DNA of 64,000 nt from the NCBI GenBank assembly GCA_963782055.1, contig CAWAIF010000003.1:4416001-4480000 (forward strand), read 5' to 3'. The stretch is from an uncultured delta proteobacterium. Lineage in GTDB: Bacteria > Myxococcota_A > Polyangia > Polyangiales > Polyangiaceae. A program made the position numbers and the translations under genes. Shown one piece after another: positions 4,749 to 36,183 of the stretch. Each line of letters starts with the position of its first letter. The stretch's first letter is position 1. The notes below the pieces were generated by a model. The model made no database searches, was not told the origin of the DNA, and saw only the letters and a list, made by a program, of their open reading frames with translations.

Positions 4749-4848
4749 CACCCTGGTCCGTCCTTCCAGTGACACCGGACGGCCCCACTTCGCATAAGAT
4801 GGATTCCGTAAACTTTCGCGCCCGACCGCGCTAGGATTTCCTATGCGC
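4749..4848 (+). repeat. 100-bp dif-like unit, copy 1
   Basis: CACCCTGGTCCGTCC...ACTTCGCATAA GATGGA TTCCGTAAACT...TCCTATGCGC. Confidence 0.97.
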
Positions 4849-7261: not shown

Positions 7262-7376
7262 ACTCAACTGGGCATCGTCCCGCGGCATGTTGAAAGTTGA
7301 GGTGTGTTTGAACAGCGTCACGTAGATCGAGGGAGAGACGCGCCGATCTGGTCACGTTCCGCGAGGGGCGGATAAA

Positions 7377-9031
7377 CCTGGATTTCGCTCGCACCGGTCC
7401 TCGGAGCGGGCGCGGGCGTCGCACGGGTCGGCGCGTCCCGGATCGGTGCCCGGCACGGCTGCCGCGCACGATAAGCGCGTAGCGTGAGCACACGTCCCCC
7501 TTTCCCCCGCCTCGCAAACCAAGTTGTGTGCCGGTCAATTCAGCATCGGGCGAGGAGCGAGTCGCAGCTGCCAGCGACCCCCGACGCGCAGCAGGCGAGC
7601 GGGCACCAGGACGCAGGCGCGACGCATCCAGGTCGCGCGCCAGTGTGCCACGGCGGTCCCCGGGCACAGCGACAGCACCCAGCGACGCATCAGGTTGTAG
7701 GCCAGCAGCTTGAGCAGCAACGCGGCCTCGTTGGCGTCGAAGGTGTTCGTCGGGGCGTAGCCGATGCCGAAGGCGTTCTTGAGCTCGGCGAAGAGCGGCT
7801 CGATCCCCGCCCGGCCGTCGTAGAAGCGCGCCACGTCGTCGGCGTCGCGGTCGTGATCGTTGGTCAGGTAGACCTGCGCCGAGTAGTCGAGGTCCTCCCA
7901 GAGGTGGACCTGCTTGCCGGTGTCGCGCTCGCTGGTCCGCACCGCCACCACGCGCCAGCCGGGAGGCCAGTCGTCGCGGCGGAAGTCCACCACGGCGACC
8001 TGTCGCGTCGGCTCGCCGAAGGCATCGCGATCGGTCGTGCGCCAGCGCGTCGTGCGCGCGACGGCGCTCATCAGGTTGGCGGTCTGCCGCATCTTCGCCA
8101 CGAAGTACGCCCCGCCGCGCTCGACCGCAGAAAGCAGCGCTGCAGACTCTCCGCCGGAGTCGATCCGCATCGTCACCACGGCTTTCGGCGCGGCGCGATG
8201 CAGCCGTCCGATCCACTGCGCGATGTCCTCGACGTCGTCCTCGCCGATGCCCGTGTCGCCCGGCCGCAGCCGCGCTCCGAGCATCGTATCGGTCTCGGCG
8301 ATGCGCGCCAGGATCGGGTGATAGCTCACGCGGCCGTGGTAGCGCGGGTTGTAGCCGACGTGCGCTCCCTCTTGCTCGCCGAACAGCGGCGTCACCGTCG
8401 TGTCCACGTCGATGGTCAGCTCCTTGGCGCGGAGCTTGGTGAGCGGCTCGAGCCCCTGCTCGGCCATCAGCTCTTCCAGCCTCTCGAGCTCGCGGCCCCT
8501 GAAGCGCCGCAGATCGTCGTAGAGCACGTCGATGCTCGGCACGATGCCGCCGGCGAGGTGCCGGAACACCGGGTCCGTCGCGAGCACCTCGAAGTCGAAG
8601 ATGCGCCGCGCTCCCGCCACCGACGCGTCGAGCAGAAGCTGAATCTGCGCCGCCATCGGATAGACCACCTGCGCTCCGGTCTTGAGGTGCCCGAAGTCCC
8701 GCCGAAGCCGACGCCCGAGTCCAATCCCCTGCACGAACGCGTTGAAGGACGCGAGGCCCCCGAGTCCCGACAACCTCGGGTCCGGCCGCCCCACCTCCAG
8801 CCCGCTCGCGCGTGCTCGCCGCACCCGGCGATTCGCCCGCTGCCACTCCCACCCCTCGGGACGCTTGCTTCCGAGCTGCTCTCGTCGCACCTTCTGGGTG
8901 CTCGGCGTGTCGCTTGCTGTTGTCTTCATCAACTCCATCAACCGGCGCGCCGAGCGCTAAATTCCAGGGCGCGCGTCGATTTTCAGGAGCGTGCATCATG
9001 CAACCGTCGCCGGAATGGAGCGAAATCTAGG
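7377..9031 (-). mobile_element. IS1380-family element, complete
   Basis: IRs CCTGGATTTCGCTC / GAGCGAAATCTAGG; 5-bp TSD ATAAA. Confidence 0.92.
7535..8941 (-). CDS. IS1380-family transposase
   Basis: TIDVDTT, GYNPRYHGRVSYHP, MRIDSG, FYDGRAGIE..FAELK. Confidence 0.92.
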   Translation of the reverse strand: MMELMKTTASDTPSTQKVRREQLGSKRPEGWEWQRANRRVRRARASGLEVGRPDPRLSGLGGLASFNAFVQGIGLGRRLRRDFGHLKTGAQVVYPMAAQIQLLLDASVAGARRIFDFEVLATDPVFRHLAGGIVPSIDVLYDDLRRFRGRELERLEELMAEQGLEPLTKLRAKELTIDVDTTVTPLFGEQEGAHVGYNPRYHGRVSYHPILARIAETDTMLGARLRPGDTGIGEDDVEDIAQWIGRLHRAAPKAVVTMRIDSGGESAALLSAVERGGAYFVAKMRQTANLMSAVARTTRWRTTDRDAFGEPTRQVAVVDFRRDDWPPGWRVVAVRTSERDTGKQVHLWEDLDYSAQVYLTNDHDRDADDVARFYDGRAGIEPLFAELKNAFGIGYAPTNTFDANEAALLLKLLAYNLMRRWVLSLCPGTAVAHWRATWMRRACVLVPARLLRVGGRWQLRLAPRPMLN

Positions 9032-9462
9032 ATAAACGAAGCCCCTCAGAAGACTTGTCCGAAGACCTTCTGAGGGGCTCGCCTCCGAGTTGTCGAGACC
9101 GGAGGTGGACATGTTCGACCAGATCGAGCTTGGGAGCGAGTTTTTCGAGGGGCTGACCAAGATCGACGAGCGGATCGCGCGGGCGGTGGCCGCACGGGGC
9201 TGCGTGTGGTGCGGGGGCCCACTGCACCGCGCGGACCATCCCCGCAAGCCACGCGGGCTGATCGCGGTCGCCGCGGAGGCCTTGGGTCGCCTGTAATACC
9301 CCAGCGAGACTCCGGAGCCCCCTCATCAATCCGTCACGTCCAGAATCGCGCCCCCTCCGCCCACACGTCTCCCGTCCTCCCGTCACGCGCGAGACCGCCA
9401 TGTCAAAGACCGAGGCGCCGGACCGACTTCCTCTCCGGCGCCCATCGCTACCCGCTGTTGAA

Positions 9463-10788
9463 CCTGGATTTCGCTCGCACCGGTCCTCGGAGCGGGCGCG
9501 GGCGTCGCACGGGTCGGCGCGTCCCGGATCGGTGCCCGGCACGGCTGCCGCGCACGATAAGCGCGTAGCGTGAGCACACGTCCCCCTTTCCCCCGCCTCG
9601 CAAACCAAGTTGTGTGCCGGTCAATTCAGCATCGGGCGAGGAGCGAGTCGCAGCTGCCAGCGACCCCCGACGCGCAGCAGGCGAGCGGGCACCAGGACGC
9701 AGGCGCGACGCATCCAGGTCGCGCGCCAGTGTGCCACGGCGGTCCCCGGGCACAGCGACAGCACCCAGCGACGCATCAGGTTGTAGGCCAGCAGCTTGAG
9801 CAGCAACGCGGCCTCGTTGGCGTCGAAGGTGTTCGTCGGGGCGTAGCCGATGCCGAAGGCGTTCTTGAGCTCGGCGAAGAGCGGCTCGATCCCCGCCCGG
9901 CCGTCGTAGAAGCGCGCCACGTCGTCGGCGTCGCGGTCGTGATCGTTGGTCAGGTAGACCTGCGCCGAGTAGTCGAGGTCCTCCCAGAGGTGGACCTGCT
10001 TGCCGGTGTCGCGCTCGCTGGTCCGCACCGCCACCACGCGCCAGCCGGGAGGCCAGTCGTCGCGGCGGAAGTCCACCACGGCGACCTGTCGCGTCGGCTC
10101 GCCGAAGGCATCGCGATCGGTCGTGCGCCAGCGCGTCGTGCGCGCGACGGCGCTCATCAGGTTGGCGGTCTGCCGCATCTTCGCCACGAAGTACGCCCCG
10201 CCGCGCTCGACCGCAGAAAGCAGCGCTGCAGACTCTCCGCCGGAGTCGATCCGCATCGTCACCACGGCTTTCGGCGCGGCGCGATGCAGCCGTCCGATCC
10301 ACTGCGCGATGTCCTCGACGTCGTCCTCGCCGATGCCCGTGTCGCCCGGCCGCAGCCGCGCTCCGAGCATCGTATCGGTCTCGGCGATGCGCGCCAGGAT
10401 CGGGTGATAGCTCACGCGGCCGTGGTAGCGCGGGTTGTAGCCGACGTGCGCTCCCTCTTGCTCGCCGAACAGCGGCGTCACCGTCGTGTCCACGTCGATG
10501 GTCAGCTCCTTGGCGCGGAGCTTGGTGAGCGGCTTGAGCCCCTGCTCGGCCATCAGCTCTTCCAGCCTCTCGAGCTCGCGGCCCCTGAAGCGCCGCAGAT
10601 CGTCGTAGAGCACGTCGATGCTCGGCACGATGCCGCCGGCGAGGTGCCGGAACACCGGGTCCGTCGCGAGCACCTCGAAGTCGAAGATGCGCCGCGCTCC
10701 CGCCACCGACGCGTCGAGCAGAAGCTGAATCTGCGCCGCCATCGGATAGACCACCTGCGCTCCGGTCTTGAGGTGCCCGAAGTCCCGC
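9463..10788 (-). mobile_element. Second IS1380 copy, 5'-truncated by the 100-bp repeat
   Basis: Near-identical to 7377-8702; stops at agtcccgc|caccctgg. Confidence 0.92.
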
Positions 10789-10888
10789 CACCCTGGTCCG
10801 TCCTTCCAGTGACACCGGACGGCCCCACTTCGCATAAGATGGATTCCGTAAACTTTCGCGCCCGACCGCGCTAGGATTTCCTATGCGC
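10789..10888 (+). repeat. 100-bp dif-like unit, copy 2
   Basis: Identical to copy 1. Confidence 0.97.
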
Positions 10889-11154
10889 TCGTCGTCCGCT
10901 TCGACGCGAAGACCCCATCCTCGCTGCCGAAGCTCCCTTCGTGGAGTGGGTCGTTTTTCTAAGACGGAGCGCGGTCGCCGAAGGCAGCTAGGTCCGGGAC
11001 TTCCAATCGGGCTCTTCTGGGTTTCGGGTGGCAGCCAACAGCGGACGGCGGTTCCCGCCGTCCCGTCGGTCCCGTCGCATGGTCGGGTGAGGCCGGCGCG
11101 TGGCGCATCAGGGCGCACGGGTTGGCGAGGCGGAGGTCCGAGGGTCTACGATGC

Positions 11155-11254
11155 CACCCTGGTCCGTCCTTCCAGTGACACCGGACGGCCCCACTTCGCA
11201 TAAGATGGATTTCGTAAACTTTCGCGCCCGACCGCGCTAGCATTTCCTATGCGC
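11155..11254 (+). repeat. 100-bp dif-like unit, copy 3
   Basis: 2 substitutions vs copy 1. Confidence 0.97.
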
Positions 11255-11262
11255 TCCTCTGT

Positions 11263-11388
11263 GACATCAGCGTACGCGACGGCTGGGCTGCACGCGAGTC
11301 CGGCAGGTGTGCGAGCGTCGAATGGCAGGACACTGAGCGCGGGGGTAGCACCTACCGCGCAGTCACGCCCTCACCCCACGCGACGGCG
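11263..11388. repeat. 126-bp direct repeat A, copy 1
   Basis: Matches 14996-15121 with a few substitutions; internal hairpin GGTAG-CAC-CTACC. Confidence 0.9.
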
Positions 11389-11520
11389 ACGCACCACCAG
11401 CGCGATCCCCAGCGCGAGCGCCGACAGCGCAGGCCACGAGCCGCGCGAGCTCTCCCCCGCCGCGTGACAGCCGCACCCGCCGTCCTCGTTGATCGGCGGC
11501 GCGCCCAGGCCCTTCGTCGC
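11371..11520 (-). pseudogene. Orphan MYXO-CTERM sorting-signal tail
   Basis: EDGGCGCHAAGESSRGSWPALSALALGIALVVRRRRVG*. Confidence 0.75.
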
Positions 11521-11571
11521 GCACCCTCTGAGCGCGAGGGCGGCGACGAACAGTGCGGCGGGATCGCGGGA

Positions 11572-12390
11572 TCAGTCGTAGCAATCGAGCCCCCCTGGGA
11601 GGGACGCATGGAGCGCGTGGCACACGTCACGATTGAGGCATAGGCCGTTCTGCTTCGCAACGGACTCGTCTCCCGGCGGGGACGGGTACACCGCGCACGT
11701 GTAGTTTCCCACCGTGGGACACGCCGCGATCACGGTGCCTCCCTGCACGACGCAGCGGGGAAAGGACGCAGGATCCTCGGGGTTCCCGCTGCAGCAGAAC
11801 TGCGCGCAGATCCCGATGGGGTGGTCCGGACCCTGCCCCACGCAGCGGTCCAGCGCGCCGTGGGCGGTGTCGCAAGGCCCGCACGGCCCCCCGCACATGG
11901 AGTGATCCTCATGCACGAGGGGATCGGAGTCCGGACATGAGCTGGCTGCTGGGATGGCGCGCCCATCGTACGGGACCTTGTCGCCATACCAGCATACGTC
12001 ACCGGCTCCCAGCTTGCGGAGGTCGTCGCAGACCTCAAGCGGAACGCACTCGAAGGAGCCCTGCGAGCGCTGCACGCAACCCTGCCCGGCGTCGCACACG
12101 GCGCAGGGCGTCTGCCCCCTGTCGGGCAGGTCGGCGAAGCACACGCCGTACGCCGAGTTCGAACCGTCACCCGTCACGAGCGGGATACAGCCACCGGGGC
12201 AGTCGGTCAGGTCACCGCACGTCCCGCCGCAAAGTCGCGCACCGGCCACGGTGCAGGTGGGCCCCGCGTCGATGGCGCCGCTGTATGGAGCAGGGGGCGC
12301 CACCCTTCCGCCGCAGCACACCACCGTCACCGCGACCGCGAAGGTGAGCGGCGCAAGTGCGCCTACGGCCGTCAGCCTACGGCGTTGCAT
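11572..12390 (-). CDS. Cys-rich lipoprotein
   Basis: Signal peptide with Cys, DAG motif, many Cys; resembles 12377-13159 (CGG.CG.C, C.G..PDHP.GIC). Confidence 0.75.
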   Translation of the reverse strand: MQRRRLTAVGALAPLTFAVAVTVVCCGGRVAPPAPYSGAIDAGPTCTVAGARLCGGTCGDLTDCPGGCIPLVTGDGSNSAYGVCFADLPDRGQTPCAVCDAGQGCVQRSQGSFECVPLEVCDDLRKLGAGDVCWYGDKVPYDGRAIPAASSCPDSDPLVHEDHSMCGGPCGPCDTAHGALDRCVGQGPDHPIGICAQFCCSGNPEDPASFPRCVVQGGTVIAACPTVGNYTCAVYPSPPGDESVAKQNGLCLNRDVCHALHASLPGGLDCYD

Positions 12391-13159
12391 CGCAAAGCGC
12401 GCCGCCCGGGTAGTTCGACTGCGCCGCCTGGCAGCCGGCCGCGTCCATGCAGAAGCCATGATTGGCCAACGGCTGTCCGTCAGGCGACGACTTCAGGACG
12501 AAGCACGAGGCCCCCGAGGGACACGGTGACACGCCACCATCCTGGACCACGCACGCCGCGGTGGCCGACCACGTCGGCACGCAGATCCCCCAGGGATGGT
12601 CCGGCGAGCGCCCGATGCACCACTCGTCCACCTTGCATCCGCCGCAGTTGCCACCGCAGATGCGGAAGCCGGGGAAGGTCGGGCAGTTGGAAGGCTCGGG
12701 CAAAGGCGCCCCGGTCCAGGGCTTCCAATCGGCGTAGCGCACGCGGCTCGCACCGCCGTTGTTTGCGAAGAGCACACCGACCTCGTACGGGAAGGCCGTC
12801 CAGGCGTCCGGCGCGAGCGTGGACTCGGCGATGTAGACCTCCCCATCAAACGCAGGTACACGACCCACACCCACCTTGGCCGACTCGCACATACCAACCT
12901 GATCGACGTCGAACGAGAAGCACGACTCACACACGCTACCGCGAGTCTGCTTGTCGGGCGGGAAGCATCCGTGGGTTCCGTTGCAGACTGCATAGATTCC
13001 ATCCGCCGTCACGCACGCATCGGCGACTCCACCGTCCACGGGGATGGCGCTGTCCACGGAGGCATCGCCGCCCGCTGGCGAGACGGTCCCACCGCATCCC
13101 AGGACGAGACAGCCGCCGACCCAGGCGAGCGCCTCCCATCTCTCAATGAAATGTCGCAT
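12377..13159 (-). CDS. Cys-rich lipoprotein
   Basis: Lipobox LGC; paralog of the adjacent gene. Confidence 0.75.
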   Translation of the reverse strand: MRHFIERWEALAWVGGCLVLGCGGTVSPAGGDASVDSAIPVDGGVADACVTADGIYAVCNGTHGCFPPDKQTRGSVCESCFSFDVDQVGMCESAKVGVGRVPAFDGEVYIAESTLAPDAWTAFPYEVGVLFANNGGASRVRYADWKPWTGAPLPEPSNCPTFPGFRICGGNCGGCKVDEWCIGRSPDHPWGICVPTWSATAACVVQDGGVSPCPSGASCFVLKSSPDGQPLANHGFCMDAAGCQAAQSNYPGGALCDATP

Positions 13160-14980
13160 GCGCAAACCCTCGTACCGACTGCGTGCTTGCTGGCGTCCGG
13201 CCACAGAGCTGCTGCACGGCGTTCGGCGCGATATTCGGCGACAACGAACTCAGGGCCAGGTAGATCCCGAACGCTTCGTTCAGGAACTCGTCGGGCGGGA
13301 CACTCTGGAAGTTGGGGCCGTCGAAGAAGACGGCCTCCACGCTATCGGGAAATACATTCAGACGCTTCGCACGAATGATCACCTCGCACACGGGAGCTCC
13401 AGTCTGAATGAGTTTGCCTGTCAGTGGATCCTTGCTCTGATTGTATACGGCACCAGGCAATTCGTATTTCGGATAGAAATTACACCGTACGTTATGGTAG
13501 TAGTTCGGGTCTCCGTTGAACGGCTGGGTAACCGTGTCTGCGAGCGCTTGGGGGTCAGAGACGGGATATGTCGTCCCACCGCCAAGCACAAGCAAGTGGA
13601 GATTGTTTGCCGCGTTGGCACAGAAGTCGGCCTCGTGCCAGCTCGCGCGATCGACTTTGTTCGGATCCCCGATGTCCTCTGCGGGCGAACCCGAATCCGG
13701 ATAGGTACCGGCGGCCCACATCGTCACGGAGTCCGTGCTCTGGCAATGCTGAAAACAGCTCTCGGGGCGCGGACCATTCGTTGCGCTGCAGTTCACTCCA
13801 GCCGGCGGGAAGGGGGCGGGAACCGGCTGAGCCTGTCCTCCCTTGAAGGTCCCTGCAGGTCCTTCGAGCGCCGCTAGTTTGGCTCCCTGGGGCACCTTCG
13901 TCTTGAGCGCCTGGTTCACCTTGTCATGACCGAGGTTGAAGAAGTCCGGACCGGCGAAGTCCCACGTGTTGACGATGGGAGGATCGACGGAGAAGACGCC
14001 GTCGTCCAGGTGGAAAAGGTAAGTTAGATTGGCATCGAAGCGCGCCTGCTCGAGCACCTGGAAGATCACCGGCGTCCACCACAGATCGGCGTGGGTGCTC
14101 AGCACGAAGCCACCCTTCGGCGCGTAGTCCACGAACGATGCCAGACCGACGTCCGAGATGTCATACGCCCAGACCACGTTGTTGCTATGGAACTGCACCG
14201 AGTTCCTCACGGTACTGAAGCTACCCTGAATCGCCTGCCGCTGCGAACAGAGTCCGTGCCGCAGGACCGAGATACCCTTGATCGTCCCACCGAAGTCCGC
14301 CGCGGCGCCGGCGACGTCGGCACTGCAGGCGACGGCACTCGAGCAATTGAGTTGGTTCGGCGGACAGGAGCACGTGAAGTCGTTCTGAATCAGCGGCCAT
14401 TCGAGCTTGGGTGCTTGGGCCTGGTTCGGGAACGGGATACTCACTGCGTTCGGCAGCGTCACGCCGGGTGGCGGCTGCGTCGCCGGGTCGCTCTCTGGCA
14501 CGACCGGCCAGAGATCGCCAGGCGCGAACGTCTCCCGGGCCCAGTCGAGCCACCGACCCAGGTTCAGTGGGTCTGGGTTCGCGCCACCGACGATCGACTC
14601 CAACGTGCGACGGTACTCGACCGGATCGCGCGCCATGACGACGACTTCCTCCTGCATCGGCACGGTAGAGAAATTGTCGGTGTAGCGCACCGAGAGCCGC
14701 GCGGAGGAGAACGGGATCAGCGACGCGGGGCCCAGCGCCTTGTCGTTGTAGAAGAAGGACTGCGCGTACCCCGTCGAGCTGCTGAACGCGACGCTGCCGT
14801 TGGAGAGCACCTGCAAGTTCCCCCCGATGCCGGTGTTCAGGTCGATGCAGGCCGTGGCCCCACCTAGCAGCCCGGCGACGACGAGCGCGGTTCCGCACGC
14901 CCACGCGGCGCGACGCCACGACCTGCGACGACGAACGCTCTCACCCTGCCTGCCTGCCTGCCTGCCTGCGCGATCTTCAT
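13143..14980 (-). pseudogene. Large lipoprotein, start codon out of frame across a (CAGG)6 tract
   Basis: RBS AGGAGG + ATG at 14980; signal peptide ...GGATAC is in frame with the 557-aa ORF but not with the ATG. Confidence 0.65.
14945..14968. repeat. (CCTG)6 simple sequence repeat
   Basis: Six perfect tetranucleotide units. Confidence 0.95.
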
Positions 14981-14995
14981 GCCACCCTCCTCGCC

Positions 14996-15121
14996 GACAT
15001 CAGCGTACGCCACGGCTGGGCTGCACGCGAGCCCCGTACGTGTGCGGGCGTCGAATGGTAGGACACTGAGCGCGGGTGTAGCACCTACCGCGCAGTCACG
15101 CCCTCACCCCACGCGACGGCG
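14996..15121. repeat. 126-bp direct repeat A, copy 2
   Basis: Matches 11263-11388. Confidence 0.9.
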
Positions 15122-15291
15122 GAGCGTACGGGATTTGAGCGCGGTTTTCCACGAGCCTCGAGCCCTCGGGGCACCGCCGGCGGCGGTGTGGTGGTGCGCC
15201 TGAACGTCGCATGGCGGCCGCGGCGGCGGGCGGAGCGCCGGTTTCCACGGGATTCTCGCCTCTCGCGCGCACCGGTCCCTGCCCGAGAGCG

Positions 15292-15655
15292 TCAGGCGGC
15301 GACGATGGCGCCGGCGATGCGGCGGATGACGGCGCTGCGGTAGTAGGGCGGAGCGCGGGCGGGCGCGCGCGGCGGGACGTCGTGCGGCTCGCCGAGCCCC
15401 TCGAGAAACCTCCGGATGCCGCGCGGCTCCTGCACCATCGCGACGAGCTTCATGCGGCCCTCGCACTTCGGGCACTTCTGCACGTCCACCGCGAAGGTCC
15501 GTGCCATGAGCTCCGCCCAAGGCCAGTAGCGCGAGCGCTTCGGCTTGTCGTCGTCCTGCGCTGTCGCCGGCGCGGAGGCGGGCGGGCGGCGGACGATCTT
15601 CGGGCGCACTTTGCTGGCGGAGGCGAGCACGCCGGCGTAGCGGACAATGTGACTC
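15292..15655 (-). pseudogene. IS91/ISCR-type transposase C-terminal fragment
   Basis: HIVRYAGVLA, WAELMARTF.VDV..CPKC.GRM, ARAPP. Confidence 0.8.
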
Positions 15656-15863
15656 TGTACCGGCGTTGGATGCAAAGCCATTTTCTGCTTCTTCTTCGTT
15701 TTCCTGGTCTCGTTTGGTCGTGACGACGATTTGCTCGGCATGGAGGTGTCCCTTCGCCGCTGGTTGGCGGCGCGTGCAGCAGACTGGTCGCGCTCTGGTG
15801 ACGCGCAGCGTCGAGCTTCCCCTCGATTGACTCTTCGCGTTCATCGGACAGCGGGCTCGTCGC

Positions 15864-15963
15864 CACCCTGGTCCGTCCTTCCAGTGACACCGGACGGCCC
15901 CACTTCGCATAAGATGGATTTCGTAAACTTTCGCGCCCGACCGCGCTAGCATTTCCTATGCGC
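15864..15963 (+). repeat. 100-bp dif-like unit, copy 4
   Basis: Identical to copy 3. Confidence 0.97.
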
Positions 15964-16099
15964 CCATCACTCCGCCGGCGTGCTCGGTGAGCCCAGTGAC
16001 CCAGTGAGCCCTCAGGGCTTCCGCGGATCGCAGTCTGTTTCGGGGGCGACTGCACGCTTCTGGGCTATGCTTTGCTGTCTTCCCTTCCAGAGGTCACGA

Positions 16100-16471
16100 A
16101 TGTCCTTCGACCGCCGTTCGCGAAGAACGCTGTCCATCGTCCACCGCGGCACCGTCGCGATCGCGGCGCTCGTCCTTTTGGCTGCAGCGATGGCGACGCT
16201 CTCATGCAGCACCGACTCCTCGGAGTGCAACTCGCCCGACGTGGTCGTCCATTACGACTGCACGCCGCTGGACGCCGGCACCGGTACGCCGGGGTGCTAC
16301 GGGACGTTGCCGTTCCAGGGGAAGTACTACCCGCCGCCGGACTACGACGCGCGCTTCCCGGTCGGCTGCAACGCCCGGCCGCCTGGCTGCGCCAACATCT
16401 CGTGCCAGTGCGGCAGGCCGCTCGGCGACCCGGACGCGCGTCCGGACTGGATGTGCGTGCAGTACCTGTGA
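16100..16471 (+). CDS. Small Cys-rich lipoprotein
   Basis: Lipobox LSC, DAG motif. Confidence 0.65.
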   Translation: MSFDRRSRRTLSIVHRGTVAIAALVLLAAAMATLSCSTDSSECNSPDVVVHYDCTPLDAGTGTPGCYGTLPFQGKYYPPPDYDARFPVGCNARPPGCANISCQCGRPLGDPDARPDWMCVQYL

Positions 16472-16560
16472 CGAGCGGGACCGTTCGTCGGCCCAGACCA
16501 GCAGGCGCAGCAGCACGCGCCAAGCCGTGCCGGCATTTGACGCCGGGCGCGGAGGTTCGT

Positions 16561-17064
16561 ATGGGGCTCTGCATGCGCACGGGACTCGTGGTGGTCGGCT
16601 CGCTCTTCCTCGTCGCGTGCGGGGCGTCGGCGCCGCCGCCCGCCGCCGCGCATCCGTCGCCGGCGGTCGGCAGCGCGCACCCGTCGCTCGCGATCACCGG
16701 CGTGACCTGCGACGACGCGGCGGCGGCGGCGGGCGCGCGGCTGGCGTTCGACCGCGCGAAGGGGGCGCTGGAGCGGCTGCCCGGCGTCGAGTCGGTGTCG
16801 ATCGGGGAGTGCGACGTGTTCTGGGCGGGGCACTTCTATCAGTCGATCGATCCGACCTTCACCGTGCCCGCGGTGGTGGGGCCGGCGCACGAGTGCGGGG
16901 TGCGCGTCGCCTTCCGGGACCAGGAGTCGCTCAGGCACTACGCCGACGCCGCGTTCGTCCTGGGGACGTTCATCCCGTACGGGACGCAGACGGAGGTGAA
17001 GCGCGCGCGGACGTGCGGGGTGCTCGCGGGCGCGCCGGCGGGAGCGGCCGCCGCCTCGAAGTGA
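16561..17064 (+). CDS. Lipoprotein
   Basis: Lipobox LVAC. Confidence 0.65.
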   Translation: MGLCMRTGLVVVGSLFLVACGASAPPPAAAHPSPAVGSAHPSLAITGVTCDDAAAAAGARLAFDRAKGALERLPGVESVSIGECDVFWAGHFYQSIDPTFTVPAVVGPAHECGVRVAFRDQESLRHYADAAFVLGTFIPYGTQTEVKRARTCGVLAGAPAGAAAASK

Positions 17065-17279
17065 GGTAGCGTCGCCGCGGGGCCGCGTAGCAAATGGGCG
17101 CGGGCTGCCATTTGGTTTGGGATCCCGCTAAGTGTAGTCGTGATGGTTGTCGCACGCTTGGTCCATAATCCGTATGGAGGGTTCCGGGTCGTCGCGACGA
17201 CCGACAGGCAAGCGGATGTCGCCTGTGTGAGGCGCGCGGTTGTGGCAACGGGCTGGTCGGAGTTGAAGACGGGGAAGGC

Positions 17280-17479
17280 CACCCTGGTCCGTCCTTCCAG
17301 TGACACCGGACGGCCCCACTTCGCATAAGAGGGATTTCGTAAACTTTCGTGCCCGACAGCGCTAGCATTTCCTATGCGCCACCCTGGTCCGTCCTTCCAG
17401 TGACACCGGACGGCCCCACTTCGCATAAGATGGATTTCGTAAACTTTCGCGCCCGACCGCGCTAGCATTTCTTATGCGC
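17280..17479 (+). repeat. Head-to-tail dimer of the 100-bp unit (copies 5 and 6)
   Basis: 17280-17379 and 17380-17479 with no intervening DNA: CCTATGCGC|CACCCTGG. Confidence 0.97.
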
Positions 17480-17791
17480 CTCGAGGGTGACCGACTGGCC
17501 ACCGAGGCAGATGTCAGCGTCGAGAGCGGGCCCCGTCAACGTCCCGAACGCGGGGACGTAGTACGGCTGCGCCATCACGGCGGCGGAGGTGCACGCGGGG
17601 ATGCCCACGAGCCCCGCGTCGCCCGCGTCGAAGGCGTCCGGCTTCACGCCCGCCTCGGAGACGCAGGTCGCTGCATCCTGGATGGCGGGGGCACCGGCAT
17701 CGACGGGCGCGAGCGGTCGGCCGTGCCGCGAGCTGCAGGCCACGAGCGCGGCGGCGACGGCCACCACGCACAGGATGTTTCGAGCCTCCAT
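17480..17791 (-). pseudogene. Lipoprotein, 3'-truncated by repeat
   Basis: Lipobox LVAC, DAG motifs; frame runs into copy 6. Confidence 0.6.
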
Positions 17792-21618: not shown

Positions 21619-21718
21619 CACCCTGGTCCGTCCTTCCAGTGACACCGGACGGCCCCACTTCGCATAAGATGGATTCCGTAAACTTTCGCGCCCGACCGCG
21701 CTAGGATTTCCTATGCGC
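21619..21718 (+). repeat. 100-bp dif-like unit, copy 7
   Basis: Identical to copy 1. Confidence 0.97.
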
Positions 21719-21784: not shown

Positions 21785-21973
21785 CCCCGCGCCGAGGTCC
21801 GCCCCGTGCAGCACACCAGCCTCCCCGATGGCGCGCGCGAGCGCGACATCGAGGGGAGGGGCGCCACGCGCAGGGCTCGCGCGCAAGCCGTCGTGCGTGC
21901 CGTAGTCCGTGCTCATGCACCCACCGCCGGCACGCGCGACGGCGAGCACGAGCCCGAGCATGGCGCCCGGAGG
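21785..21973 (+). repeat. ~190-bp repeat B, copy 1
   Basis: Similar to ~46811-47002; both are followed by Rhs fragments. Confidence 0.8.
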
Positions 21974-23681: not shown

Positions 23682-23781
23682 CACCCTGGTCCGTCCTTCC
23701 AGTGACACCGGACGGCCCCACTTCGCATAAGATGGATTTCGTAAACTTTCGCGCCCGACCGCGCTAGCATTTCTTATGCGC
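23682..23781 (+). repeat. 100-bp dif-like unit, copy 8
   Basis: Ends TTCTTATGCGC. Confidence 0.97.
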
Positions 23782-24512: not shown

Positions 24513-24612
24513 CACCCTGGTCCGTCCTTCCAGTGACACCGGACGGCCCCACTTCGCATAAGAGGGATTTCGTAAACTTTCGCGCCCGACCGCGCTAGGA
24601 TTTCATATGCGC
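24513..24612 (+). repeat. 100-bp dif-like unit, copy 9
   Basis: Spacer GAGGGA. Confidence 0.97.
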
Positions 24613-25376: not shown

Positions 25377-25425
25377 CACCCTGGTCCGTCCTTCCAGTGA
25401 CACCGGACGGCCCCACTTCGCATAA
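25377..25425 (+). repeat. Left half of 100-bp unit (copy 10), ends at the XerC-like arm
   Basis: ...ACTTCGCATAA then foreign sequence; right half at 31012. Confidence 0.95.
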
Positions 25426-26053
25426 GTAAGAGTCGATTGCGTGAGCGCGCCGGGTCGCGGCGGCGGTCGCGTGGCGCGGGTGCGCGGTCGCGAAATCGAC
25501 GGTTGGACGAAGCCGGTGCGCGGCAGCGGCGAGGCGGTGGCCTCGGAGCCCTATGGGGAAGTTGGCGGCGTGTGGGTCACGTGTGCGGGTGCGCGAGGTG
25601 CGGAGCGGGCGGCGGGACGGCGCTCGACGCGGGCGTCCCGGAGCGCGCAGCGGGCAGCCGTGCGTGCTCGGAGGCCGGGTTTTCGTGGCGTGGATGGACA
25701 GGGGCCTGGGCCGCACTCGTGGAGCGAGCGCAGTGGAGCACGACGCGGGGAGATCATGCGGCCCCCGGCGGGTCGCGAGCTCGGGGCTCCGGCAGCGCGG
25801 TACGCACGAGGGCAGGCGTGTGGCAAGCGGGGCAGCGGTGCAGGTCGATGCCCGCGATTCGCAGCAGCAGGTCGGCGGCGTCGACACGGCGCACCGGTCG
25901 CGCAGCGGGCGCCGCGTGCGGACCCAGTCTGCGGCGTGCGGTCTCGAGGCGCGTGGTGGCGTGGCTGGCGGAGTGCAGGGTAACCCATCGGTGATCTGAC
26001 GTACTCCCCGGCGGGACGGATCCCCGCTACGCGCATTGGCGGAGGTCAGCGCG

Positions 26054-26386
26054 ATGGGAAAGCGGGACGGTGCGCGGCAGTGGCGGCAGTGGACGGAGCA
26101 GCAGGCGCGGGCGGCCCTCGCGGAGCTCGCGGCGAGCGGTGAGAGCGCGGCGGGCTTCGCGCGGCGCAAGGGCGTGTCGTCGCAGCGGCTCGCGTACTGG
26201 AGGGGCCGCCTCGCGCGTCCGGCGAGCACGGAGTTCGTGGCCGTGGAGCTTGCGGGCGACAGCCTGGCGCGGTGGATGGAGATCGTCGTTGGGGGTGTGG
26301 TCGTTCGCGTGCGGGAGGAGCTGGACGCGGAGCGGGTGGCGCAGCTGGTGAGGGCGCTCGGGCGGCAGGTGGGCGGCGCGTGCTGA
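26054..26386 (+). CDS. IS66 accessory protein TnpA
   Basis: [24 protein letters not shown]. Confidence 0.85.
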
Positions 26387-26754
26387 CGCTGCCGCCCGGC
26401 GTGCGCGTGTTCGTCGCGACCGAGCGCGTCGACGGGCGCAAGGGGATCGACGGGCTCTCGGTGCTCGTGCGGTCACGGTTCGCCGAGGACCCGCTCTCGG
26501 GGACGATGTTCGTCTTCTTCTCGCGTCGCGCCGACCGCGTGCGAGTCCTGTACTGGGATCGCGACGGCTACGTGCTCATCACCAAGCGGCTGGAGAAGGG
26601 AAGCTACCGGTTGCCGTGGCCCGGCGAGGGAGGGCGCGCGGTCATCGAAGCGGCGGAGCTGCTCCTGGTGCTCGAGGGGATCGAGCTTCGCGGGGCCGGC
26701 CGGCGGATGCGCTGGTCGCCCTCCCCCCGTGTGCGACCGGCGCCCACTTTGTGA
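26380..26754 (+). CDS. IS66 accessory protein TnpB
   Basis: [30 protein letters not shown]. Confidence 0.92.
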
Positions 26755-26822
26755 GATCCATCTTCGTGGCTGCGATCGAATCGTCTTTCCATCGGGCGCG
26801 CCCTGCGGCAAAGAGGATCAGC

Positions 26823-28424
26823 GTGTCCGCGTCGAGCAACAAGCACCCGCCCATCACCAGCGCGATCGAGCCCGATCTCGGCGCGGTGAGGAAGTTCATC
26901 GCGGACATGATCGCCAGGGGCGCCGTCGCCGAGCTGATCGCTGCGGTCGTGGGGTTGCTCGTGCGCATGCGCGAGCTCAACACGGAGTTGATGCGCAGGG
27001 TCGCGAGCAAGTCGCGCAGGCGCCCGCCCAACGAGGCGATGCGGCGCCTGCAGATGGAGCTGCCGTTTCTGTGCGCGCCCGCCGCCAACGATGGCGCCAA
27101 ACCCGGCCTCCCCCGGGAGAAGAAGCCGAGGAAGCGCGGCGCCCACAAGCCCACGCCGCATGGCCGGCCCAAGCTGCCGGCGCACCTGCCGCGCGTCCCC
27201 AACGTGCTCCTGGTCCCCGCCGCCGATCGCGTGTGTCCGGACTGCGACGTCGCGCTCACGCGCGTCTGCCTCAAGACCACGGCGGAGAAGCTCGACGTCA
27301 GGCCGTCGGAGTACATCGTCGTGCAGACGCAGCTCGAGACGTGCTCCTGTCCCAAGTGTCGCCGCTACCTCGTGACCGCGCCCACCCCGGACGAGGTCGT
27401 GGATCGTGGGCTGCTCGGCGACGAGCTTCTCGTGCAGGCGCTGGTGGATCACTACCAGGACGCGGTGCCGTGGGAGCGGATGGAGCGCAACGCGCGACAA
27501 CAGGACGTGCCGCTCGCCGCCAACACGGTGGCGTCCTCCGTCGGGAAGGTGATCGACCTGTTCGACCCCGTCGTGCGCCACATCCGCGAGGCGTGCCTGT
27601 CGTCGAGCTTCACCGCGCTCGACGCGACGCGCATGCCCGTGCTCGACCCGACGCATCCGCTCGGCATCAAGAGCGGCGCGCTCTGGCTCATCGAGGGGGA
27701 TCATCGCCATGCGTGCTTCCTCTACGCGCCGAGCGGCCACGCCGAGCACCTGAAGAAGTTCTTCGAGGGCCGCACGCTCCGCAGCGTGATGTGCGATGGG
27801 TCGCCCACCAACAACTGCGTCGAGCACGCCGGCGGCCATCGTGGCGGCTGCAACGCCCATGGCCGGCGCGGCCTGGTCGAGGCGCTTCGTCGCGGCGACG
27901 CGCGCGCCGTGCCCGGGCTGGAGCTCTACGCCAAGATCTTCCACGTCGACGCCCAGTCCAGGCGCGCAGGCGAGAGCATCGACCGGCGCTTCGAGCGGCG
28001 CCTCGAGGACAGCGCGCCCATCGTGGCCGAGCTTCGCGCCTGGCTCTCCCTGCGCCTCGCCGACGTCGAGCCCAGGAGCGTGCTCGGCCAGGCGCTCCGC
28101 TACCTCGATCGCCAGTGGTCGCGCCTCACGGCCTTCCTTCGCGATCCGCGCATGGAGCTCACCAACAACGAGGTCGAGGCCGGACTTCGGACCTGGGTCC
28201 TCGATCGCAAGACGTGGCTCTTCGTCGGCCACGAGCAGAGCGCACGCCGCGCCGCCGACGCCCTCACCCTCCTCACCACGTGCAAGAAGATGGCGATCGA
28301 CCCGCGCGCCTACTTGCGCGACACCCTCGCGAGGATCCTCGCTGGTGAGAAGAGCCTGGCGGCGCTGCTGCCGGAGACCTACGCGGCCTCGCGCGCCGAG
28401 CGGGCGCCACCCCGCGCCGCGTAG
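26823..28424 (+). CDS. IS66 transposase TnpC
   Basis: LPAHLPR, CPDC, DAT, CNAHGRR, TNNEVE, RKTWLF. Confidence 0.93.
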   Translation: MSASSNKHPPITSAIEPDLGAVRKFIADMIARGAVAELIAAVVGLLVRMRELNTELMRRVASKSRRRPPNEAMRRLQMELPFLCAPAANDGAKPGLPREKKPRKRGAHKPTPHGRPKLPAHLPRVPNVLLVPAADRVCPDCDVALTRVCLKTTAEKLDVRPSEYIVVQTQLETCSCPKCRRYLVTAPTPDEVVDRGLLGDELLVQALVDHYQDAVPWERMERNARQQDVPLAANTVASSVGKVIDLFDPVVRHIREACLSSSFTALDATRMPVLDPTHPLGIKSGALWLIEGDHRHACFLYAPSGHAEHLKKFFEGRTLRSVMCDGSPTNNCVEHAGGHRGGCNAHGRRGLVEALRRGDARAVPGLELYAKIFHVDAQSRRAGESIDRRFERRLEDSAPIVAELRAWLSLRLADVEPRSVLGQALRYLDRQWSRLTAFLRDPRMELTNNEVEAGLRTWVLDRKTWLFVGHEQSARRAADALTLLTTCKKMAIDPRAYLRDTLARILAGEKSLAALLPETYAASRAERAPPRAA

Positions 28425-28486
28425 CCCTCACGGACATGCGCTCCGGGGGGCTGACGCGCCGCCGGGGCCGTGCTTTCGTGCACGTC

Positions 28487-28945
28487 ATGTTGCCGCTCGA
28501 AGGCTCGTTGCTGGAGAAGTTGCGCAAGATCGAGGCGCTCCACGCGGGCACGCGCGTGGATGGCGAGCGCGAGGCCGCGCGGCGCGCCGCCGAGCGCATT
28601 CGTGCCCGGCTCGCCGAGCTTCGCGGCCGCGAGCAGGACACCCTGCTCCACTACACCCTGCCCGATCCCTGGACACGCAGGCTCTTCGTCGCGCTGTGTC
28701 GCCGCTACGGTCTCGTCCCCTTTCGCGAGAGCGGCCGCCGGTACACCACCGTCCAGGTGCGCGCACCCAAGGCCTTCCACGACCACACGCTCTGGCCGCA
28801 GTTCCTCGCGCTCTCCGAGGAGCTCAACGCGCACCTCGACGAGCTCACCACCCGCGTCATCCGCGAGGCGATCAACGACGACGTGAGCGACCCGCAAGAC
28901 GGCGCTCCGCCCAAGGCGCTGCCCGAGCCGACTCGCGGCGCCTGA
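28487..28945 (+). CDS. IS66 passenger hypothetical protein
   Basis: LLEKLRKIEALHAG..GEREAA; inside the IS66 IRs. Confidence 0.7.
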   Translation: MLPLEGSLLEKLRKIEALHAGTRVDGEREAARRAAERIRARLAELRGREQDTLLHYTLPDPWTRRLFVALCRRYGLVPFRESGRRYTTVQVRAPKAFHDHTLWPQFLALSEELNAHLDELTTRVIREAINDDVSDPQDGAPPKALPEPTRGA

Positions 28946-29985
28946 CGCCGTCATGGCTCCAGCCGACGGCGGGCGGACAGCACGCGCCAGTCGCCGGATC
29001 AACAGGCCCCGTGGACGTCGATCACCGATGGGTTACGGTGCAGGCCGTAGTGGCGGATCTTGACGAAGCCGCGCGGCAGCACGTGCTGGACGAAGCGCGC
29101 GAGCAGCTCCTCGGCCGGGACGGTGACCGACTTGCCGTCTCTGGTGCGGAAGGTGACGCCGCGCTCGCCCATCGAGACGAAGCGGTGGTTGGAGATGCCG
29201 ACGCGGTGAGTGTAGCGACCGAGGTAGCGGATGACCTGAGCGGGGCCGCCGAAGGGTCGCTTGGCGTAGACGACCCAGGCCTTGCGTCGGAGCGCCAGCA
29301 GGTCGACGCCGCCCAGGTCGACGAGGCCGCGCGCGTGGGCGCGCTCGAGAGCGGCGAGCATCTTGCCGCGAAAGAGCGCGCCCATCACGCGCACGGGGAA
29401 GAGGAAGCGACGGCGCGCGCGCACCCAGCGCGCGGCGTGGCCGGTGAGTCCGCCGCCGGTGACGATGGCGTGCACGTGGGGGTGGAAGAGCAGCGCGCGC
29501 GTCCAGGTGTGCAGGACCATCGTGACGCCGAGCTCGGCGCCGAGCCACTTCGGATCCCGCGCGAGGGTGGCCAGCGTGTCGGCCGCGCTCGCGAAGAGCA
29601 TGTCGAAGACCCGCGCGCGCGAGCGCCGCGCGACGGCGCGCAGCTCGGCGGGGAGCGTGAAGACGACGTGGAAGTAGTGCACGGGCAGAATGCGCTCGAG
29701 CCGCGTGGCGACCCACCGCGCCTGCGCGAGCGACTGGCACTTGGGACAGTGCCGGTTGCGGCACGAGTTGTACGACGGTCGCTCGAGCCCGCACGCGGTG
29801 CACACGTCCAGATGTCCGCCCAGCGCGGCGGTCCGGCATCGCTCGATCGCCCGCAGCGCCGACCGCTCCTCGGGACGCAGCACGCGGCCGCCGGCGAAGG
29901 CCTCGCCGTGGGCGCGCACCACGTCCGCGAGCTCGATGGGCGCCGCGCGCGTGCGCGCGGGCGCACACGACGGGTGCATCGGGGC

Positions 29986-30831
29986 TCAGGGCAGCGCGTC
30001 GAGGGGGCTCTGAATCGACTGCACGCGGGCGGTGCTCACGTGCAGGTAGGCCATCGTGCTCCTGAGCGACGCGTGCCCGAGCAAGACCTGCAACGTGCGA
30101 AGGTCGGTCCCTGCGTCGAGCAGGTGCGTGGCGAAGCTGTGGCGCAGCGTGTGCGGCGACACGCGCCGGGTGATGCCCGCGCGCCGCGCCGCCTTGAGGA
30201 TCGCCCGGTGGACGGCCGCGCGCGTGAGGAGCGTCCCGGGCACGCGCCCCGGAAACAGTTGCGGTCCTGCGGGTCGTGACGCCTTCCAGTACGCGCGCAG
30301 CGTCGCCAGCAGCCTCGCGCTGAGCATCACGTAGCGCTCACGCCCGCGCTTGGTGTGCCGCACGTGCAGGAGCATCCGCTTCGGATCGATGTCGTCCACC
30401 CGGAGCTTGCACACCTCGCTCACGCGCAGCCCCGCCCCGTAGGCGAGCATCACCAGGGCCCGGTGCTTGTGGCTCGTGAGCGACGCGAGCAGCCGCGCCA
30501 CCTCCGCGCTCGTCAGCACCACCGGCACGTGCATCGGCACCCGCATGCGCGCCATCCCCAGCGTCGCCTCCGGCCGCTCCAGCGTCACCTCGTAGAGAAA
30601 CCTCAGCGCGGCCGCGTGCACGTTGACCGTCAGCGCCGCCAGCCTGCGCTCCGCCACCAGGTGCAAAAGGAACGTCCGGATCTCCGCCGCCCCCAGCGCG
30701 CACGGCGACCGCCCGTGGTACTGCGCGAACCGCCGCACGCACCCCACGTACGTGGCGATCGTGTTGGCGCTCATCCCTCGCAGCGCGAGGTCCTCGCTCA
30801 TCGTGTCCCGCAGTCTTCGCTTCGCACCCAT
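29986..30831 (-). CDS. Tyrosine recombinase (SAM-like N-terminus)
   Basis: GAGLRVSE, TKRGRER, HTLRHSFATH, LLGH, Y; full catalytic set. Confidence 0.95.
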   Translation of the reverse strand: MGAKRRLRDTMSEDLALRGMSANTIATYVGCVRRFAQYHGRSPCALGAAEIRTFLLHLVAERRLAALTVNVHAAALRFLYEVTLERPEATLGMARMRVPMHVPVVLTSAEVARLLASLTSHKHRALVMLAYGAGLRVSEVCKLRVDDIDPKRMLLHVRHTKRGRERYVMLSARLLATLRAYWKASRPAGPQLFPGRVPGTLLTRAAVHRAILKAARRAGITRRVSPHTLRHSFATHLLDAGTDLRTLQVLLGHASLRSTMAYLHVSTARVQSIQSPLDALP

Positions 30832-31011
30832 CGCGGCCTCCTTCGGCTCCGCGCGCGCCCACGAGCGGGCGGCGCGCGCCGCAGGATCGCCCGCATCACG
30901 GCACGCGAGGGCTACGAGGCGGGCTCGTCAGCGCGCACACGGCTCGCGGGGCTCCCGGGTCGCGAGCGAGCTTGATGCGGAGCCACGCTGCCGCGCAGCG
31001 GCTTCGTCCAA

Positions 31012-31062
31012 GATGGGTTTCGTAAACTTTCGCGCCCGACCGCGCTAGGATTTCCTATGCGC
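31012..31062 (+). repeat. Right half of 100-bp unit (copy 10)
   Basis: GATGGG TTTCGTAAACT...CCTATGCGC preceded by element arm GCTTCGTCCAA. Confidence 0.95.
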
Positions 31063-34559: not shown

Positions 34560-34608
34560 CACCCTGGTCCGTCCTTCCAGTGACACCGGACGGCCCCACT
34601 TCGCATAA
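34560..34608 (+). repeat. Left half of 100-bp unit (copy 11)
   Basis: Ends TCGCATAA (the IS66 TSD). Confidence 0.95.
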
Positions 34609-36124
34609 GTCTCTGCTTAGCGGCCGGAAGACGGCCCGCGGCCCGGGCGTGACGTCGACCGTCGGAGGACTCGCCGGCTAGTGGGCAAAGACAGACGGAG
34701 GCGGCTTGCCGTGGAGGTGACTTTCGTACAGCCCGATGACGAAGCCCCGAAGCGGGAGCTGGCACTTGCGCCGCGTCTGCGTGATGCTCATCCAGTGCGC
34801 CAGGGTGGCGCTGCCGGCGGCCGAGCGCGTTCCGCCGGTCATCGCGCGGTGCCGCCCGTGGGCGCGGATGTCGCGTTCGGTCGCGTTGTTCGTGGCCGGG
34901 ACGTCGGGGCGGTCGATGAAGAGCGTCACCCCCACCTTGTGCTCGTCGAGGCGCTCCTGCAGCCGGACGATGTCCGGGAACTCCACGAAGTTGGTGCTGC
35001 TGATGAGATGGCCGAGGCGGATGCGCGCGCCTCGGCGCTGCTCGGGATCGCCGCTCGCCGCGGCGTGCTTGCCCGCGACGTAGAAGCCGATGAGTCGGTC
35101 GCGGAACTCCTCGGTCGCGGCGCACGGGGTGAGCTCGGCGATCTTCTTGGCCTCGCGGATGGTGTGCGCACCGCAGTAGGCGTGGGTCCAGCCGTCGTGA
35201 CTCGTGTACACGCCGTAGAAGTCGGTGCACAGGACTCCTTTGAAGCTCGCGCCGAGCATCGACTCGGCGACCCACGCGCCGCGCGACAGCTCGGCGCGGA
35301 AGACCGAGACGCGGTCGGTGCGCATCAGCCACATCCAACCCGGCACGCCGTCCTGTCGATGGCCGCTCTCGTCGAGGCCCGCCACGGGCGATGCGCGCAC
35401 CGCGTCGACCAGCTCGTCGTAGCTCGGCGCCGAGCGGCGTCGCAATCGGTCGAACATCTGCGCCAGGCCGCCGGTCGTGATCGAGATGCCGAGCCACTGT
35501 CCGAGGAACGCACTGATCTTGCCCAGCGGCATGTCGCGCTCGAAGCGCAGGTCCAGCGCCATCGCCTGCACGTTGGGGCCGAACGACACCGCGGCGACGC
35601 TCTTGCCCGCCGCCGGCGCGCCCGGCAGCTTCGCGACCACGCGCTTGTGGCACACCTCGCAGCTGCCGACGTGCGCCACGTGATGCGTCTGCCGCGGCTG
35701 CACCACTGGGATGTCGGTGACGACTGTGCTGTCCGTCTCGCCCGTCGCCACGACTGCCCCGCCACAGCTGCACGTCGCCGGCATCTCGTGCACGACTTCG
35801 TCGTCGACGTGGGCCGGTGCGGCGGGCCGCGATCCGACATGGCCCACCTTGCGGCCGCGCGGCTTGCCCGAGGGCGCCCGCCGACCCTCGGAGCGCGACG
35901 TCCGCCGCTTCCCGCGCTCCCGGAACCCGCGCTTCCACTCCTCGATCTCCTTGCGCAGCTTCGCCAGCTCTTCGCGAAGCGCGGCGTTCTCCTGCTCCAG
36001 CTCCTGGATCCGCTGCTCGGGCGTCACGTGATCCGGGATGCTCCCGATCAGGTCCCATGGAAAGAACTTCTCGCATCAGGAACGAAGAATGGACCCACAG
36101 TGTGCGACACCGCTAAGCAGACAC
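34609..36124 (-). mobile_element. Single-ORF IS66-family element inserted in the dif-like site
   Basis: IR GT(C/G)TCTGCTTAGCGG; 8-bp TSD TCGCATAA at 34601-34608 and 36125-36132. Confidence 0.93.
34678..36027 (-). CDS. IS66-family transposase
   Basis: Coiled coil, GLDESG, CTDFYGVY, CGAHTIRE, TNNATERDIR. Confidence 0.93.
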   Translation of the reverse strand: MTPEQRIQELEQENAALREELAKLRKEIEEWKRGFRERGKRRTSRSEGRRAPSGKPRGRKVGHVGSRPAAPAHVDDEVVHEMPATCSCGGAVVATGETDSTVVTDIPVVQPRQTHHVAHVGSCEVCHKRVVAKLPGAPAAGKSVAAVSFGPNVQAMALDLRFERDMPLGKISAFLGQWLGISITTGGLAQMFDRLRRRSAPSYDELVDAVRASPVAGLDESGHRQDGVPGWMWLMRTDRVSVFRAELSRGAWVAESMLGASFKGVLCTDFYGVYTSHDGWTHAYCGAHTIREAKKIAELTPCAATEEFRDRLIGFYVAGKHAAASGDPEQRRGARIRLGHLISSTNFVEFPDIVRLQERLDEHKVGVTLFIDRPDVPATNNATERDIRAHGRHRAMTGGTRSAAGSATLAHWMSITQTRRKCQLPLRGFVIGLYESHLHGKPPPSVFAH

Positions 36125-36183
36125 TCGCATAAGATGGGTTTCGTAAACTTTCGCGCCCGACCGCGCTAGGATTTCCTATGCGC
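36125..36183 (+). repeat. Right half of 100-bp unit (copy 11)
   Basis: TCGCATAA GATGGG TTTCGTAAACT...CCTATGCGC. Confidence 0.95.

Follow-up and report, generated by a model that had tools for sequence, protein, structure and literature searches.

The ends of a 100-nt repeat unit are joined to other DNA at an exact nucleotide in many places of the 7.58-Mb genome studied here (G000), and these joints are plausibly the work of a rolling-circle (HUH, Y2) transposase of the ISCR/IS91 type whose gene stands ahead of every large array, at a distance of 36 nt upstream of its first unit. The comparisons described below support the view that the unit ends act as a reaction site of their own, apart from the dif-like core at the unit centre, and they partly support the view that the joining is a variant of ISCR/IS91-type end joining. 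The catalysis, the strand, and the direction of the joining are inferred. The original prediction had proposed a second reaction of low specificity at the unit ends, with HUH-like or IS110-like end joining as examples. What has stood is the exactness of the unit side, a preference of 1-2 nt in the partner DNA, and a candidate enzyme of the HUH type; the IS110-like option found no support.

A profile search with a model made from nine copies in the window, that is, the whole 64-kb stretch of contig C3 that was analysed, gave 62 matches to the unit in the genome. The matches are grouped into a few arrays. Three of these are large, with all their units in one orientation, and are found on contig C3 near 2.73-2.74, 4.41-4.49, and 5.18-5.27 Mb. 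In a set of 41 related genomes, G000 was the only one with the whole unit, and a Rfam scan gave no family for the unit, the sole matches being group II intron domains at 39.6-41.6 kb of the window. On the unit side the boundary does not shift by a single nucleotide: CACCCTGGTCCGTCC opens the 33 canonical left ends, and TATGCGC closes the 36 right ends. A distance of 50 nt separates each end from the dif-like site at the unit centre. The units of the window referred to in this work are the following (positions are those of the window unless a contig is named, and a slash within a sequence marks a joint):

4749..4848, + strand: unit whose right end adjoins an Rhs C-terminal frame, two bases ahead of its ATG
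10789..10888, + strand: unit that cuts off an IS1380 copy at its left end; nhmmer model positions 1-100, E=1.2e-32; starts CACCC at 10789
11155..11254, + strand: unit
15864..15963, + strand: unit
17280..17479, + strand: head-to-tail dimer of two units with zero bases between them, TATGCGC/CACCC at 17379/17380
21619..21718, + strand: unit whose right flank continues site X; the left flank of site X is at another unit, in a different array
23682..23781, + strand: unit that cuts off an Rhs fragment at its left end
24513..24612, + strand: unit
25377..25426, + strand: left half of a split unit; the insert follows
31013..31062, + strand: right half of a split unit
34560..36183, + strand: unit split at the central site by an IS66-family element (34610-36133), with TCGCATAA on both sides

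Subterminal hairpins are predicted in the unit at positions 7-36 and at positions 80-100, the latter reaching the last base, with fold energies no better than those of shuffled sequences (z=-1.39 and -1.30). As a separate observation, the right end of the unit (10872-10888; unit positions about 84-100 elsewhere) reads AGGATTTCCTATGCGC, with an RBS-like AGGA seven bases before an ATG. The frames listed at 10883, 17474, 21713, and 24607 begin at this right-end ATG, and AGCA replaces AGGA in some copies.

The segments between the units are copies, at 79-100% identity, of other loci, and genes are severed at the unit ends. A donor that carries an identical unit-plus-flank was looked for and not found. 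Two right ends are joined to one source at points 23 nt apart, as nested joints. Just upstream of the window (C3:4411489-4412028), a 340-nt segment that is 100% identical to C2:3479-3818 is held between the right ends of two inverted units. About 350 nt from C2:3479-3818, contig C2 also has part of a frame that resembles a Y2 transposase. Among the severed genes is the transposase gene of an IS1380-family element, of which the genome has five full copies and one truncated copy. Three features of the window define this joint:

7375..9031, - strand: intact IS1380-family element, the unbroken form with which the joint is compared; NF033539, 246.6 bits
about 9461..10789, - strand: truncated IS1380 copy, with the 5' part of the transposase gene missing; 99.9% identical over 1329 nt to the intact copy
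10781..10793, + strand: joint of the truncated IS1380 with the left end of the unit, AGTCCCGCC/ACCC; the break is ambiguous by one C

The strings from which the original prediction had been drawn were read again in the window. The intact IS1380 has AGTCCCGCCGAAG at 8695-8707, the truncated copy has AGTCCCGCCACCC at 10781-10793 (one base off from the start given before), and the dimer junction reads as it had been described. The Rhs sequence is indeed altered at 23682: the window has CACCTGTCT/CACCC and four paralogs have CACCTGTCC/ACCATCG (joint 23681/23682), with a T in the flank where the four paralogs carry a C. The missing 5' part of the truncated IS1380 was found nowhere else in the genome. 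The DNA that flanks the intact IS1380 (7309-7377 with 9030-9100) is contiguous in a second copy at 43694-43825 (- strand), beside a truncated integrase gene, and this copy is an empty site for the intact IS1380 with about 8 nt overlapping. The 61-aa frame at about 9112-9296 had no match in NCBIfam.

To describe the flanks, the canonical unit ends of the whole genome were deduplicated on 12 nt of flank, which gave 31 unique left ends and 36 unique right ends. In the window, GC had been counted ahead of eight of 11 left ends, and the same count was obtained here from the flanks CAAC, CCGC, ATGC, TCGC, AGGC, GCGC, TCGC, GTCT, GGGC, TGCT, and GTGC. Genome-wide, GC stands before 17 of the 31 unique left ends, against 11.4% expected before CAC (p=5e-9), and before 16 of 29 when the transposase-linked contexts and the dimer are left out (p=1.3e-8). 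A pyrimidine occupies -1 at 30 of the 31 unique left ends (53.5% expected, p=1e-7) and +1 at 33 of the 36 unique right ends (C 21, T 12, G 2, A 1; 42% expected after GCGC, p=7e-10). A looser logo was made over 15 positions on each side from 42 left and 48 right unique ends, some chance matches among them; it holds 0.67 bit at -1, 0.37 at +1, and 0.12 at -2, with the other positions at 0.22 or less, so that no information is seen further out than -2 on the left and +1 on the right. Such a logo had been named as the check on the prediction, with flanks that show no enrichment over the GC background as the outcome that would speak against it, and the enrichment is real. Since the flanks are otherwise unrelated, the signal is not explained by shared ancestry. 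Comparison of the -1 base with the +1 base of the same unit was not informative (agreement in 16 of 26, about 14 expected, counted by hand).

The joints were then compared with partners, that is, uninterrupted copies of the flanking DNA, which are genome paralogs and one allelic site; most of them are paralogs at 79-100% identity and not proven ancestral sites. At the GC-type left joints (IS1380, site X, and C3 6168320, 5256706, 5223817, and 5977204), the GC is already present in the uninterrupted partner in six of six (chance 8e-6), and the GC at the left joint belongs to the partner DNA. Of ten left joints compared, six have a partner with GC at the join, two a partner with AC, and two a partner with TC, so that C precedes the join in all ten; in seven of them the partner continues with a further C. 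At Rhs 23682 and at C3 4412889, the left joint has a T in place of the C of the partner. This T may have been carried over from the native context of the unit behind the transposase gene, ...GTGCT/CACCC, because a T directly precedes the unit there. The right joints behave differently. Their first flank base (+1) equals that of the partner in nine of nine informative comparisons, and immediately before the join the partners carry A, G, G, T, G, C, G, A, and T. C thus occurs there in one of nine, whereas 23 of 31 left flanks have C at -1 (Fisher p=0.0012). Since the partner bases differ between left and right, the joints are not two faces of one blunt insertion after GC.

Two points of the original prediction have to be revised on this evidence. 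A common end rule does not hold, as left and right joints share no rule in the partner DNA. The proposed GCC micro-homology keeps a sound part, the enrichment of G followed by a pyrimidine on the left and of a pyrimidine on the right, but it was overstated, two joints (including Rhs) having a T that is absent from the partner. Two models are compatible with the joints: an overlap of one pyrimidine, or one-ended joins made separately. Site X is the sole site with both flanks known; it has a one-base overlap, and its flanks are now at units of different arrays. The dimer fits no one-base duplication. With regard to a target-site duplication, no unit has both its flanks on one empty site, and the overlap at site X is of one base across two units.

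The search for empty sites in related strains, also suggested at the outset, succeeded in one allele pair from a metagenome and failed in the six congeneric genomes: a 20-kb array query against them found paralogous families at 67-77% identity and no orthologous sites. The allelic site is C3:2236357 (locus L083, position 558). One soil-metagenome contig reads ...GATCTC/CACCC at this place and runs into the left half of a unit with an IS91 insert, whereas G000 reads ...GATCTCCGTCTT unbroken; the comparison covers the left joint only. A second metagenome contig, 96% identical, passes straight through the site. No contig was found to reach the right joint of this insertion, runs X2 and X3 yielding none at the site, and the contigs that match window positions 9000-17600 span parts of that region. 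One metagenome run thus has both forms, and G000 has the empty form.

If the units belong with the IS91/ISCR group, they should be linked to an HUH/Y2 transposase, and such a gene stands at the head of the arrays. Its frame of 573 aa matches Pfam Y2_Tnp with 98.7 bits (cut-off 20.9) and Zn_Tnp_IS91 with 60.3 bits (cut-off 26.3). The best NCBIfam model is ISCR clade Ia (275 bits, cut-off 925), and IS91 gave 101 bits (cut-off 125), both scores being below the cut-off. The gene has the same spacing to the first unit and is co-oriented with it in three of three copies (arrays at 4.41, 5.27, and 2.74 Mb), one of which is truncated at the N-terminus. Contig C2 carries a diverged remnant of the transposase together with a diverged unit, and, of 121 genomes examined from the order, 50 have homologs of the array-head transposase. 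Where a unit is linked to the transposase, its left end is an internal point, and its orientation to the gene is unlike that of a textbook IS91.

A similar arrangement was found in a genome of another genus (G130). It has five Y2_Tnp genes, and behind three of them stands a unit that is 181 nt long, differs in sequence from the unit of G000, and has a dif-like centre (..GTTGCATAA GGGCAA TTATGTAAAC..). Within 27 kb there are four nearly identical copies of this unit in one orientation; three of the four are solo, and the ends are exact. The left flanks have a pyrimidine at -1 in eight of eight examined and T at -2 in seven of eight. All five Y2_Tnp matches are low, at 35-73 bits, and resemble the array-head type. 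A Y2 transposase gene and units are thus linked and co-oriented in two genera. Another candidate analogue, a 93-nt repeat with a tandem copy in genome G038, was rejected, as it is the terminus of a longer repeated element.

In the mechanism that we propose, the ISCR-like HUH enzyme would nick at the unit boundaries, and the nicked unit ends would be joined to DNA cut at loosely matching pseudo-sites, as members of the IS91 family do with their target tetranucleotide. Nicking and joining of this kind would yield the severed genes (IS1380 and Rhs), the nested joints, and the head-to-tail dimer. Units would later recombine with one another, through their homology or through the dif-like core, and the two flanks of one event would then be parted. 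The junction of abutted ends expected of the IS91/ISCR group is present as the one dimer, and no circle was observed. Against a rolling-circle reaction, the enriched motif has 1-2 nt and is far weaker than the CTTG/GTTC of IS91, and the conserved target tetranucleotide that IS91/ISCR elements have beside one end is replaced here by these 1-2 enriched nucleotides. The unequal left and right joints, the T at two left joints, the internal position of the left end in the transposase-linked copies, and the fold energies at the level of shuffled sequences speak against it as well.

Many units are split by a different element, an integrase-bearing member of the IS91 family of 2.4-2.6 kb. The copy in the window lies between the two unit halves listed above:

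25427..31012, - strand: IS91-family element in the unit centre, interrupted by an IS66-family element; integrase-like recombinase at 29989-30927, Y2 transposase at 29002-29985

The Y2 transposase of this element is an IS91 equivalog (371 bits, cut-off 125) with HPHVH and YLGRY motifs. Its recombinase, of 313 aa and found in several intact copies, belongs to the integron-like/Xer group and has 198 bits, in two stretches, against the integron-integrase cut-off of 265 bits. Two length forms were seen, of about 2.4 and 2.6 kb (C3 5221391-5223817 and 5238336-5240954), and the short one is without the part of the transposase gene for residues 203-269. The IS66-family element at 34610-36133 is inserted within one base of the IS91 insertion point in the unit centre.

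The presence of this second Y2 transposase raises the question of whether the unit is the fused end pair of the integrase-bearing IS91, so that the transposase of that element acts on the unit ends. All ten copies that retain its transposase gene have it at the same site between the unit halves and in a single orientation, the gene points to the left end of the unit, which would place the flank motif, as it does in IS91, next to the end that lies downstream of the transposase, and the protein is a clear IS91 equivalog. The inner junctions of the insert tell otherwise. In its own orientation the insert reads CCAT/CTTGGACGAAGCCGC...GACTCTTA/CTTATGCG, with an IS91-like CTTG start and a CTTA target, so that the ends of the element are these inner junctions (CTTG.../...CTTA/CTTA), which also speaks against the unit as its MITE-like derivative. 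Related IS91 elements in other genomes stop at a homologous GGAC.AA.CCGC palindrome without unit halves, and the unit profile found nothing convincing in 79 loci of such elements (best E=1.6). G130 has unit arrays without this element, and its five Y2_Tnp proteins are unlike the integrase-linked transposase. The integrase-bearing IS91 has been inserted into the unit centre, and the unit ends do not belong to it. We dropped the fused-end reading, which we consider quite improbable, on the ends of the relatives, the inner junctions, and the G130 arrays, and the array-head Y2 transposase fits the unit ends better than the integrase-linked one. It is also unlikely that a tyrosine recombinase, either the integron-like one of the IS91 insert or the host XerC/XerD, joins the ends at weak secondary sites. 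Integron integrases use short secondary sites, the 313-aa recombinase is at hand, and the one-base overlap of site X would suit an exchange reaction, but neither the unit ends nor the dimer junction have inverted binding arms around a spacer. The cores of an integron attC (RYYYAAC ... GTTRRRY, with an integrase) are absent from the unit ends, where no GTTRRRY-type core was found, and the recombinase is under the integron-integrase cut-off. The unit ends of G130 are exact too, and the site suited to Xer is the dif-like one at the centre, 50 nt away from either end.

The joints might be made with no dedicated end enzyme at all, by illegitimate recombination of the host (slippage or deletion at short homologies) beside a repeat that stalls replication, which we regard as rather unlikely. 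It would account for the 0-4 nt shared at the left joints (a single C in seven of ten; at Rhs, CACC in the partner and CACCC in the unit) and for the missing part of the IS1380, whose absence from the rest of the genome is what a plain deletion would produce. Slippage would scatter the breakpoints, whereas the unit side is one nucleotide in 31 and 36 independent contexts; the right joints have no shared bases on the unit side, and the same exactness is repeated in G130 with a different unit sequence. Nor do we give much weight to the idea that the boundary was set two bases too far in, with GC (or CT) as a degenerate part of the unit and the enrichment as a trace of shared ancestry. The native context ...GTGCT/CACCC does hold GC and T, and the T at -2 in seven of eight left flanks of G130 could be unit sequence, but the GC was already in the uninterrupted partners in six of six, and the flanks were deduplicated and are unconserved from -3 to -15, which makes such a shift very improbable. 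An insertion of the IS110 type, by a DEDD transposase with a guide RNA, is hardly credible: it has in its favour a general likeness to site-specific insertion without duplication, but none of the 167 frames of the window matched an IS110-type transposase in Pfam, none is linked to the units as a DEDD transposase would have to be, and the element side is without coding capacity.

ISCR elements are held responsible for the movement of resistance genes, and we know of no established rules for their joining. ISCR1 has a sharp oriIS boundary against variable DNA, mostly truncated IS transposase genes, and transposition has never been demonstrated for any ISCR element (PMC6218425). Similar to ISCR1, ISCR2, and their relatives, the array heads have a gene of the Y2 rolling-circle type and, downstream of it, a short end region that stops sharply; past this edge lies variable DNA, often truncated IS transposase genes (PMC6218425). 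The best NCBIfam model of the array-head protein is likewise ISCR clade Ia, but its score is far under the cut-off of that model. Unlike in ISCR, the end piece is here a free-standing 100-nt unit in many copies and co-oriented arrays, it has a dif-like centre, and both of its ends are exact rather than one.

The IS91 family is described as having insertion without target duplication, a tetranucleotide beside oriIS with a related cleavage site at terIS, one-ended transposition, and circle junctions with the ends juxtaposed (PMC13181058). The units resemble IS91 proper (IS91, IS801, and IS1294) in having no evident long target duplication, a junction of abutted ends, two unlike ends each with a subterminal hairpin (here a predicted one), a short motif beside one end that is similar to the final bases of the opposite end (GC and ...GCGC), and adjacent DNA that is severed or may be carried along (PMC13181058). 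They are unlike it in that the motif is loose and 1-2 nt long, where IS91 has a conserved tetranucleotide with T at position 2, in that the left end is on the transposase side, and in that the left and right joints misfit one blunt insertion. Helitrons share with the units the rolling-circle mode proposed here, ends that are exact, a host motif of very few bases at the joints, and the capture of host fragments in arrays (PMC5714925). Helitrons are eukaryotic and insert between A and T, and they have a helicase fusion, a domain not seen here. What integron cassette arrays and Xer-dependent modules (pdif modules, IMEX) have in common with the units is the co-oriented short repeats between cargo and a dif-like site in each repeat. 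They differ from the units, whose joints are 50 nt off the dif-like centre, which have no attC-type core, and whose cargo consists mostly of gene fragments and not of whole cassettes.

Put more broadly, and as a tentative picture that we ourselves regard as doubtful, a clade of ISCR-like transposases in myxobacteria-like soil bacteria may build integron-like arrays in which a short unit tags each captured piece of DNA, with the outer unit ends as sites of HUH nick-and-join with a one-base pyrimidine overlap and with a centre that mimics dif, so that two enzymes would share the work, capture falling to the HUH enzyme and exchange to a Xer or integron-like one. The material offers many independent joints in one genome, with exact ends, a measurable partner preference, and at least one pair of filled and empty alleles, and the arrangement is repeated in a second genus. 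Target choice, joining, and array building could be tested on such substrates as both boundaries of the unit and the junction of abutted ends.

Some other features of the window were recorded. A group II intron is present at 39641-41655 (- strand), with Rfam matches to D1-D4 and to the catalytic core and a frame with reverse transcriptase and maturase domains. A second family of short repeats, seen at 21786-21975 and 46865-47001, numbers about 20 copies genome-wide, which are 82-92% identical. Finally, seven tandem repeats of about 200 nt at 58905-60248 lie within a frame that has FG-GAP repeats and a cadherin-like domain.
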